Shown here: positions 16,691 to 17,833 of the stretch, in pieces
How the letters are laid out: the number at the start of each line of letters is the position of its first letter
How positions within the stretch are numbered: the stretch's first letter is position 1
Assembly (NCBI GenBank): GCA_041665325.1
Contig: JBAYJB010000001.1
Span: forward strand, 1-59,823
Reading direction: 5' to 3'
Origin: Minisyncoccota bacterium
GTDB lineage: Bacteria; Patescibacteriota; Minisyncoccia; Phycocordibacterales; PALSA-1337
DNA: 59,823 bases
Made by a program: the position numbers and the translations under genes
The notes under the pieces: generated by a model
Database searches by the model: none
Told to the model about the DNA's origin: nothing
What the model saw: the letters and a program-made list of their open reading frames with translations, nothing else

Positions 16691-17833
16691 ATGAGAGAGA
16701 CAATCACAATCAACGATCCGGAAGTGGCGGAGATCATAACCCGGCTGGAAAAGCAGTCAGATACGCATAGCACGCGCCTCAAGAGGCTTCTGGCTCTGCC
16801 CGATCTGTCCAAGAAGCTCAATTCTCCGGTGAAGATTCTCTTCGATACCTTCATGTCATTGCCGCGTTTCCAGGATTTCGATCTCGTCGAATTTCCACGG
16901 ATCGTGACGGTCGAACAGGATTTCGACCTCCTCAATACCCCCAAGGATCATCCGAGTCGCCGCGAGACCGATACTTACTACACCGACAAGGATCATGTCC
17001 TACGCACCCAGATGACTGTCATGTGGTCTTTCTATCTGAAGGATCAGAACATCCTGGCCAAGCTAGAGCGCGAAGGGGAAGTGAAGTGCCTCTCGGCCGG
17101 CATCGTCTACCGGAAGGATGAGATTGATCGGCATCATTTCCCGGCCTTCCACCAGATCGACGGTCTCTATGTTTGCAAAAAGTCCAAGAAAGTCATCACC
17201 CTGAAGGATCTCGAGGAAGTGCAGATCGATATGGCGAAGGGCATATTCGGCAAAGATATCGAATATCAGTTCCTCGTCGACGCTTTCCCATTCACGGATC
17301 CGTCCGTGGAGATGGATATCAAGTTCAACGGCGATTGGCTGGAGGTCAATGGCGCCGGGCTCGTGCATCCGCAAGTCCTGAAGAATTTTGGCCTTGATCC
17401 GGAAGTCTACAACGGCTGGGCCTTCGGTTTCGGCGATCGTCTGGCGATGATCAAGATGGGGATCCCGGATATCCGCATCCTCTGGTCGGAAGATCCGCGC
17501 ATCACTAGTCAGTTCAAGGATATCAACAGCAAATACAAAGAAGTCAGCAGATATCCGTCTACCACGCGCGATATATCATTCATCGTGGATAAGAGCGTCA
17601 GTTTGAATAATTATTTCGAGATCGTACGCGACTACGCCGCCAACCTCATCGAAGAGGTGAAGCTCCTCGACAGGTACGAGAATGACGAGAAGTTCGGCCC
17701 GGGCAAGGTGAGCTACACATTCAGGATCACTTATTGCTCGCCGGAGAGGACGCTGACCAATGAAGAGGTAAATGTTATCCAGAATAAGATCAGAGGAAAT
17801 ACGCAGTCGGAATTGAAGGCGGTTTTGAGATAA
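16691..17833 (+). CDS. pheS: Phenylalanine--tRNA ligase alpha-type catalytic domain fused to a C-terminal FDX-ACB domain (single-chain, mitochondrial-like architecture)
   Basis: Class II motifs FPAFHQIDGL and GWAFGFGDRLAMIKMGIPDIR. An extra ~100 aa follows: YPSTTRDISFIVDKS...GKVSYTFRITYCSPERTLTNEEVN, which is FDX-ACB-like. ATG 16691 clears the tRNA-Thr. Confidence 0.85.
   Translation: MRETITINDPEVAEIITRLEKQSDTHSTRLKRLLALPDLSKKLNSPVKILFDTFMSLPRFQDFDLVEFPRIVTVEQDFDLLNTPKDHPSRRETDTYYTDKDHVLRTQMTVMWSFYLKDQNILAKLEREGEVKCLSAGIVYRKDEIDRHHFPAFHQIDGLYVCKKSKKVITLKDLEEVQIDMAKGIFGKDIEYQFLVDAFPFTDPSVEMDIKFNGDWLEVNGAGLVHPQVLKNFGLDPEVYNGWAFGFGDRLAMIKMGIPDIRILWSEDPRITSQFKDINSKYKEVSRYPSTTRDISFIVDKSVSLNNYFEIVRDYAANLIEEVKLLDRYENDEKFGPGKVSYTFRITYCSPERTLTNEEVNVIQNKIRGNTQSELKAVLR

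Follow-up and report, generated by a model that had tools for sequence, protein, structure and literature searches.

The only PheRS encoded in the genome of an ultra-small groundwater bacterium of the CPR (Patescibacteria) is a single chain of 380 amino acids, in which a class II catalytic core of the PheS type is followed by the FDX-ACB domain that ends bacterial PheT. Very probably, this gene encodes a single-chain, editing-free enzyme of the design known from mitochondrial PheRS (PheRS-M), is not the product of a local gene fusion but a member of an old CPR clade, and sits in a chromosomal slot whose PheRS genes have been exchanged.

A single-chain PheRS gene

The stretch of DNA analyzed here, referred to as the window, comprises 59,823 nucleotides of a 305-kb contig. 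The 805-kb genome to which it belongs is in 38 contigs and 96.9% complete and, like all genomes used throughout this study, is a metagenome bin. The PheRS gene lies on the plus strand at 16691-17833 and encodes 380 amino acids plus a stop codon, as defined by the open reading frame and its translation, the Pfam domains, and the alignment of homologues. The enclosing open reading frame (16655-17833, plus strand) is intact from an in-frame ATG at 16691. A longer alternative start, the GTG at 16655, would place the beginning of the coding sequence inside a tRNA-Thr(TGT) gene (16588-16661); because of this overlap and because homologue alignments begin at the ATG, we placed the gene at 16691-17833. 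These are the coordinates proposed in an earlier reading of the sequence without database searches (hereafter the sequence-only reading), and all the motifs quoted there are present in the translation.

The protein begins with an N-terminal extension (residues 1-59; 16691-16867, plus strand) that is conserved in the CPR clade and modelled by AF2 as three helices at residues 10-21, 25-34, and 46-55 (pLDDT 88-96). The class II PheRS catalytic core follows (residues 60-275; 16868-17515, plus strand; Pfam tRNA-synt_2d, PF01409, E 4e-54), and an FDX-ACB (B8-type) anticodon-binding domain forms the C-terminus (residues 286-380; 17546-17830, plus strand; PF03147, E 3e-24). The latter also matches positions 692-798 of the pheT model TIGR00472. 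The fusion of a class II core to a C-terminal FDX-ACB domain, claimed from the letters alone, was confirmed by the two HMMs that had been suggested for checking it. From the domain content, the predicted reactions of the core are ATP-dependent activation of phenylalanine and its transfer to tRNA-Phe, and the GAA anticodon would be read by the FDX-ACB domain.

A TATAAT hexamer (16676-16681, plus strand) precedes the ATG by 9 nt, and the upstream nucleotides (16676-16690) contain no Shine-Dalgarno sequence. The hexamer was not called by a promoter consensus scan because a -35 match is absent. The hexamer and the missing Shine-Dalgarno sequence suggest that the mRNA may be leaderless or have a very short leader. 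A look for the gene in RNA sequencing runs turned up no match, which speaks neither for nor against expression.

The only PheRS of the genome

As the sequence-only reading had stated, no pheT is adjacent to the gene, and the downstream neighbor is gyrB (17960-20113, plus strand; NCBIfam DNA gyrase subunit B model, 890 bits). Searching with TIGR00472 revealed no pheT elsewhere in the 96.9%-complete genome; the matches were the FDX-ACB tail of the gene itself and, weakly (E 2.8e-4), a 123-aa tRNA_bind protein. A profile search of the same genome found no pheS. The B3_4 editing domain had zero matches genome-wide, and the best B5 match in the genome was a chance-level hit of 15.8 bits. Another weak PF01409 match, considered as a second PheRS core in the genome and window, proved to be LysRS. 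The genome-wide search that had been proposed for pheT has therefore been made: canonical pheT and pheS are absent, and the C-terminal region matches FDX-ACB strongly. The lack of a beta subunit and of an editing domain (pheT, B3_4, and B5 absent) is evidence at the level of the genome only. Since the beta subunit and B3/B4 are absent, Tyr-tRNA-Phe and m-Tyr-tRNA-Phe would escape proofreading in cis, and no editing would be expected in vivo. The genome has one copy of tRNA-Phe(GAA), on the same 305-kb contig as the PheRS gene. It is canonically bacterial, with G1-C72 and A73.

The 123-aa protein is a free-standing tRNA_bind domain (PF01588, E 1e-21) with a Trbp111-like OB fold. Its gene lies on contig C7 of the genome (G000, L002:1468-1839, plus strand), between ruvX and a gene for a VTT-domain membrane protein. 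Judging from its domain, this protein could be a trans-acting tRNA-binding partner of the single-chain PheRS, though the two genes are unlinked. Such a partner bears on the oligomeric state of the enzyme, for which the architecture suggests a monomer by analogy. A working PheRS might instead be a homodimer, or might employ the tRNA_bind protein in place of PheT B2 or the PheS coiled coil, an arrangement that gains some plausibility from the presence of this gene on contig C7, from the similar small proteins encoded in many relatives, and from one genome (G046) that pairs a single-chain gene with a B2-like ORF. However, the tRNA_bind gene is unlinked in this genome, and small tRNA_bind-like ORFs occur in carriers of either PheRS type; since pheS-pheT carriers have it too, the gene is not specific to the single-chain form. 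Human mitochondrial PheRS, moreover, is fully active as a monomer (PMC3275996). We regard a homodimer or a partnered enzyme as quite unlikely and the monomer as the probable state.

Predicted structure and conserved residues

An AF2 model built from an alignment of 44 sequences reached pLDDT 95.1 and pTM 0.91 for the 380-aa protein (a single-sequence model had a pLDDT of only 35). The top ranks of a Foldseek search with this model were structures of human mitochondrial PheRS, 5mgv and 3cmq (TMq 0.80-0.81 over ~390-405 columns). Superposition on 3cmq covered both domains (TMq 0.80, rmsd 2.7, 388 columns), and the modelled FDX-ACB domain packs on the core as in 3CMQ, that is, in the closed form. 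The score against the tRNA-bound open form 3tup was lower (TM 0.59) because of domain rotation. By analogy with human mitochondrial PheRS, the FDX-ACB domain would have to swing out of the closed state of the model into an open one with tRNA bound. Bacterial PheS chains matched in the core only (TM 0.55). Human mitochondrial PheRS is also the closest protein of solved structure by sequence (E 1e-55). The suggestion that the C-terminal domain resembles the tail of monomeric mitochondrial PheRS is therefore supported both by this sequence match and by a fold match over both domains (TM 0.80).

The core contains the motif 2 arginine R141, FHQ at 153-155, FPF at 199-201, the pocket residues A244 and G246, and the motif 3 arginine R250. 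The roles of these residues (motif 2 and 3 arginines, Phe pocket) we take to be those of the T. thermophilus, E. coli, and human enzymes. Across 44 single-chain sequences from CPR bacteria, viruses, and eukaryotes, the catalytic motifs are invariant or nearly so: R141, H149, F153, Q155, P200, GWAFG (with A244 and G246), and R250 are conserved, F199 is nearly invariant, and position 201 holds F or, in most CPR homologues, Y (FP[FY]). Motif 3 distinguishes the subtype found in the window, which reads GFG-DRLAM, from the other CPR subtype and the mitochondrial enzymes, which read GLGLERLAM. The window's subtype thus has a one-residue deletion and D in place of E just before the motif 3 arginine.

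Distribution in Patescibacteria

We searched 41 genomes from the window's genus and 16 other families of the same order. The full single-chain gene was present in 12 of the 41, at 47-76% identity to that of the window, and fragments were present in 2 more; pheS and pheT were absent from all 14. The remaining relatives, with one exception, encode a separate pheS, mostly with an adjacent pheT, and no single-chain gene. The exception (G036; 98% complete, 50 contigs) showed neither PheRS type though tRNA-Phe was present, probably reflecting an assembly gap. Of 151 genomes drawn evenly from the phylum, 9 had the single-chain gene, and none of these 9 contained a full pheT. The two types exclude each other: not one of 191 Patescibacteria genomes was found to have both the single-chain gene and pheS-pheT. 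None of the ~22 carriers, one of them a one-contig genome and several with a completeness rating of 100%, has a full-length pheT, and pheS was absent in the 19 of them that were checked (excluding G046, G130, and G151). The single-chain form is therefore widespread but a minority: roughly one genome in three in this order has it, and ~6% of those sampled from the phylum. When GTDB species representatives were scanned for the pattern, at least 566 species had relatives, under the names Taylor-, Staskawicz-, Nealson-, Moran-, and Wolfebacteria and Paceibacterota.

The two-subunit enzymes of this order are themselves reduced (L007:1348-3354, L022-L025, and other relatives). Local PheS proteins are short, at 243-277 aa, and have no N-terminal coiled coil. 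Local PheT proteins, at ~620-690 aa, start at model position ~157 and are missing the B1/B2 OB-fold part. Two genomes encode a mini-PheT of 424-454 aa after pheS, inside contigs in both cases (G004, L142:1662-3026; G034, L143:588-1862, minus strand). It consists of B5, a catalytic-like module, and FDX-ACB, with neither the B3/4 editing domain nor B1/B2, and is a third PheRS architecture in the order. As the mini-PheT has no B3/4, editing has been lost within the two-subunit form as well. A short PheT in G018 was discarded as evidence, since the gene is cut by a contig end.

One chromosomal slot for either PheRS type

In relatives with either PheRS type, the locus has the same order: rpsB, tsf, a small ORF, tRNA-Thr, PheRS, gyrB. 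The left flank in the window (14812-16551, plus strand) comprises rpsB and tsf, identified by NCBIfam, and a 129-aa small protein with zero Pfam matches. The tRNA-Thr(TGT) gene (plus strand, detected by ARAGORN) lies directly upstream of the PheRS gene, and in six relatives the same tRNA-Thr stands before either pheS or the single-chain gene. The edges of the exchanged segment could be located by comparison with G022, a pheS-pheT carrier that is the closest relative of the window by RpoB. DNA homology stops at 16661, the last base of tRNA-Thr, whose 3' end is therefore the exact left edge of the cassette, and resumes at 17957, three bases before the ATG of gyrB, the right boundary. Between these breakpoints the window has 1.3 kb containing the single-chain gene only, and G022 has 3.8 kb containing pheS, pheT, and a permease gene.

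Other genes near the slot were noted in passing. The G022 permease belongs to the AI-2E family (339 aa; L181:4938-5954), follows pheT, and is absent from the slot in the window. Downstream of gyrB in the window, inspection by eye indicated a protein whose N-terminus resembles that of type IV prepilins (GFTLIELLVV motif; 20187-20885, minus strand) and a small heat-shock (Hsp20-like) protein (20929-21444, minus strand).

On an RpoB tree of 34 relatives, from which G020 was left out because its very long branch came from a wrongly picked RpoB ORF, the PheRS type changes 8 times (bootstrap range 7-10). Well-supported branches require at least 5 of these changes, and the type clusters no more than shuffled labels do. 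The genome of the window is sister (100/99) to two pheS-pheT carriers. Two divergent single-chain subtypes, A (that of the window) and B, occur inside one genus, and each has also turned up in a second family of the order; gyrB, beside the slot, is 81-85% identical within the genus. The gene of G011 (L019) is a mosaic, combining a subtype-B core, 76% identical to that of G039 and 44% to that of the window, with a subtype-A FDX-ACB domain, 74% identical to that of the window and 53% to that of G039. The single-chain gene of G021 (L018) likewise has a subtype-B core and a subtype-A-like FDX-ACB domain. These mosaics point to intragenic recombination near the domain linker. Separately, the G011 bin was seen to contain two rpoB copies, on contigs C4 and C5, one of them at a contig edge, and may hold two strains; G011 entered the RpoB tree by the full-length copy on C4.

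From these sequence comparisons, the slot has been exchanged many times, most likely by homologous recombination in its conserved flanks. In such a cassette exchange, a gene from an old clade spread across the Patescibacteria would come to occupy the pheS-pheT slot. The tRNA-Phe(GAA) of the window's genome is 100% identical to that of six pheS-pheT carriers; with the same tRNA-Phe in carriers of either type, the PheRS swap needs no tRNA change.

Relation to known PheRS families

None of three curated family models claimed the protein at its cut-off. It scored 233.9 bits on pheS_mito (TIGR00469; cut-off 258.35), on which its viral and eukaryotic relatives score 264-434, and 167.4 bits on pheS (TIGR00468; cut-off 237.45). 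The top NCBIfam match by E-value (9.6e-71) was SrmL (NF051887), at 238.7 bits against a cut-off of 300 and spanning model positions 32-344 of 349.

SrmL shares its overall architecture with the single-chain PheRS. From the family name, "PheS-related mystery ligase", we assume that it is a paralogue that occurs beside a canonical PheRS. The gene could then be such a paralogue, with the true PheRS hidden in an assembly gap of a genome in 38 contigs, and the rank of the SrmL match speaks for this explanation. But the score is below the cut-off, which 0 of the 151 sampled Patescibacteria genomes pass, and the gene here is the only PheRS candidate: no other PheRS was found in the genome, and the two types do not co-occur among 191 genomes. 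Full-length pheT was found in none of the ~22 carriers, one of them a single contig and several 100%-complete. The gene sits in the pheS-pheT slot, and its Phe-pocket and ATP motifs are conserved. We consider an SrmL-type paralogue highly improbable and continue to read the gene as the PheRS of this organism.

The organellar enzymes (FARS2, Msf1, PheRS-M, 3CMQ/3TUP) have the same design: a single chain with a PheS-type core and a C-terminal FDX-ACB domain, likewise without a beta subunit or editing domain, with a common two-domain fold and closed packing, and with the motif 2 and 3 arginines, FHQ, FP[FY], and GWAFG in common. In contrast to them, the CPR gene is a chromosomal housekeeping gene of a bacterium, its product has no presequence, and its predicted substrate is a canonical bacterial tRNA-Phe. 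The CPR protein is also without the ~25-100-residue insertion that many eukaryotic forms carry between profile positions ~165 and ~190. PheRS of giant viruses (Nucleocytoviricota), such as that of Tupanvirus soda lake, are ~340-360 aa long and have the same two domains, again without the insertion; unlike the CPR protein, they pass the pheS_mito cut-off, group with the organellar clade, and are without the ~40 most N-terminal residues of the CPR protein (profile coverage starts at 39-45). With bacterial (alpha-beta)2 PheRS (1PYS, 3PCO), the CPR protein shares a homologous core (33-38% identity to solved PheS, TM 0.55), a homologous B8/FDX-ACB domain, an identical tRNA-Phe in relatives, and the chromosomal slot, whereas it has no B1-B7, B3/B4 editing site, heterotetramer, or N-terminal coiled coil. 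The claim of likeness to the mitochondrial enzyme thus holds for architecture and fold, but the protein belongs neither to the curated mitochondrial family nor to the organellar clade. It appears to represent a bacterial sister subfamily of the PheRS-M design.

Phylogeny of the core and FDX-ACB domains

A core-only tree (LG+C20+F+G4, 230 columns) separated bacterial PheS, including local CPR PheS, from all single-chain proteins with support of 100/99, and a second tree of 125 rows gave the same split. The CPR single-chain proteins formed a clade (100/99) sister to an organellar and giant-virus clade (100/96). The comparison with mitochondrial and bacterial PheS that the sequence-only reading had called for thus placed the Patescibacteria clade beside the organellar and giant-virus enzymes and apart from PheS; in both the core tree and the 125-row tree, it falls outside the organellar clade. 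The eukaryotic members include S. osmophilus Msf1 and Salpingoeca, and compact relatives of ~345 aa were assigned to giant viruses, e.g., Tupanvirus, from their source names. Longer, basal bacterial single-chain forms are also from Minisyncoccota/Patescibacteria. A tree of the FDX-ACB domain likewise split the B8 domains of local PheT from all single-chain domains (100/99).

These trees bear on the simplest account of how such a gene could arise, an internal deletion within the lineage that fused the local pheS core to the local PheT B8 domain. The gene is exactly where relatives have pheS-pheT, and a stepwise reduction of PheT, including a mini-PheT without the editing domain, can be traced in those relatives. 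But the core is just 34-43% identical to local PheS, the same clade is present in distant classes of the phylum, and both parts of the protein are separated from their local counterparts, the core from local PheS and the FDX-ACB domain from local PheT B8 (100/99 each). In-situ fusion of pheS to the end of pheT was rejected on the basis of these two trees, and we regard it as extremely improbable. Descent from an old CPR single-chain clade remains our preferred reading.

How that clade relates to the eukaryotic and viral enzymes is less clear-cut. That the clade came from eukaryotes or giant viruses by an ancient transfer would be consistent with the closest non-CPR relatives, all of which are organellar or from giant viruses (Tupanvirus, S. 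osmophilus Msf1, Salpingoeca), and Patescibacteria swap genes readily. Against it, the CPR clade branches deeply and has members in several classes, and the PheS-rooted tree recovers reciprocal monophyly of the CPR (100/99) and organellar/viral (100/96) clades, with CPR not nested in eukaryotes. We consider this origin unlikely. The PheS outgroup was narrow, consisting of local CPR PheS and the nearest library matches, and does not allow the root to be placed within bacterial PheS; given this outgroup and the reciprocal monophyly, the tree does not show which way any gene passed between bacteria and eukaryotes or viruses. Tentatively, and with considerable doubt, we raise a broader idea: that the monomeric design is bacterial, with its home in the Patescibacteria, that the organellar and viral enzymes descend from it, and that the slot toggles between a proofreading and a non-proofreading PheRS. 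If this were true, mitochondrial PheRS would not have been built in an early eukaryote by domain loss from an alphaproteobacterial pheS-pheT.

Discussion

According to a review, every known prokaryotic and cytosolic PheRS conserves the heterotetramer, and mitochondrial PheRS, a chimera of the alpha core and B8, is the only monomeric example in class II (PMC3275996). AARS Online has a PheRS-M entry with FARS2 only (PMC11580382), and the grouping of giant-virus PheRS with organellar sequences has already been published (PMC11304981). Our literature search found no description of a bacterial single-chain PheRS. The CPR gene contradicts the view of a universal prokaryotic heterotetramer and a sole, mitochondrial monomer. 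It also provides a bacterial sister group for the mitochondrial enzyme, making the origin of FARS2 testable.

For the biology of the Patescibacteria, several implications follow. First, judging from their sequences, hundreds of species in this phylum appear to rely on a one-chain, editing-free PheRS. Second, an essential translation gene has been swapped repeatedly at one locus. Third, sister species that differ only in the cassette and share the same tRNA-Phe offer a natural experiment on the dispensability of PheRS proofreading. Lastly, since its predicted substrate is a canonical bacterial tRNA-Phe, this 380-aa enzyme may be suited to biochemistry as a convenient minimal PheRS.
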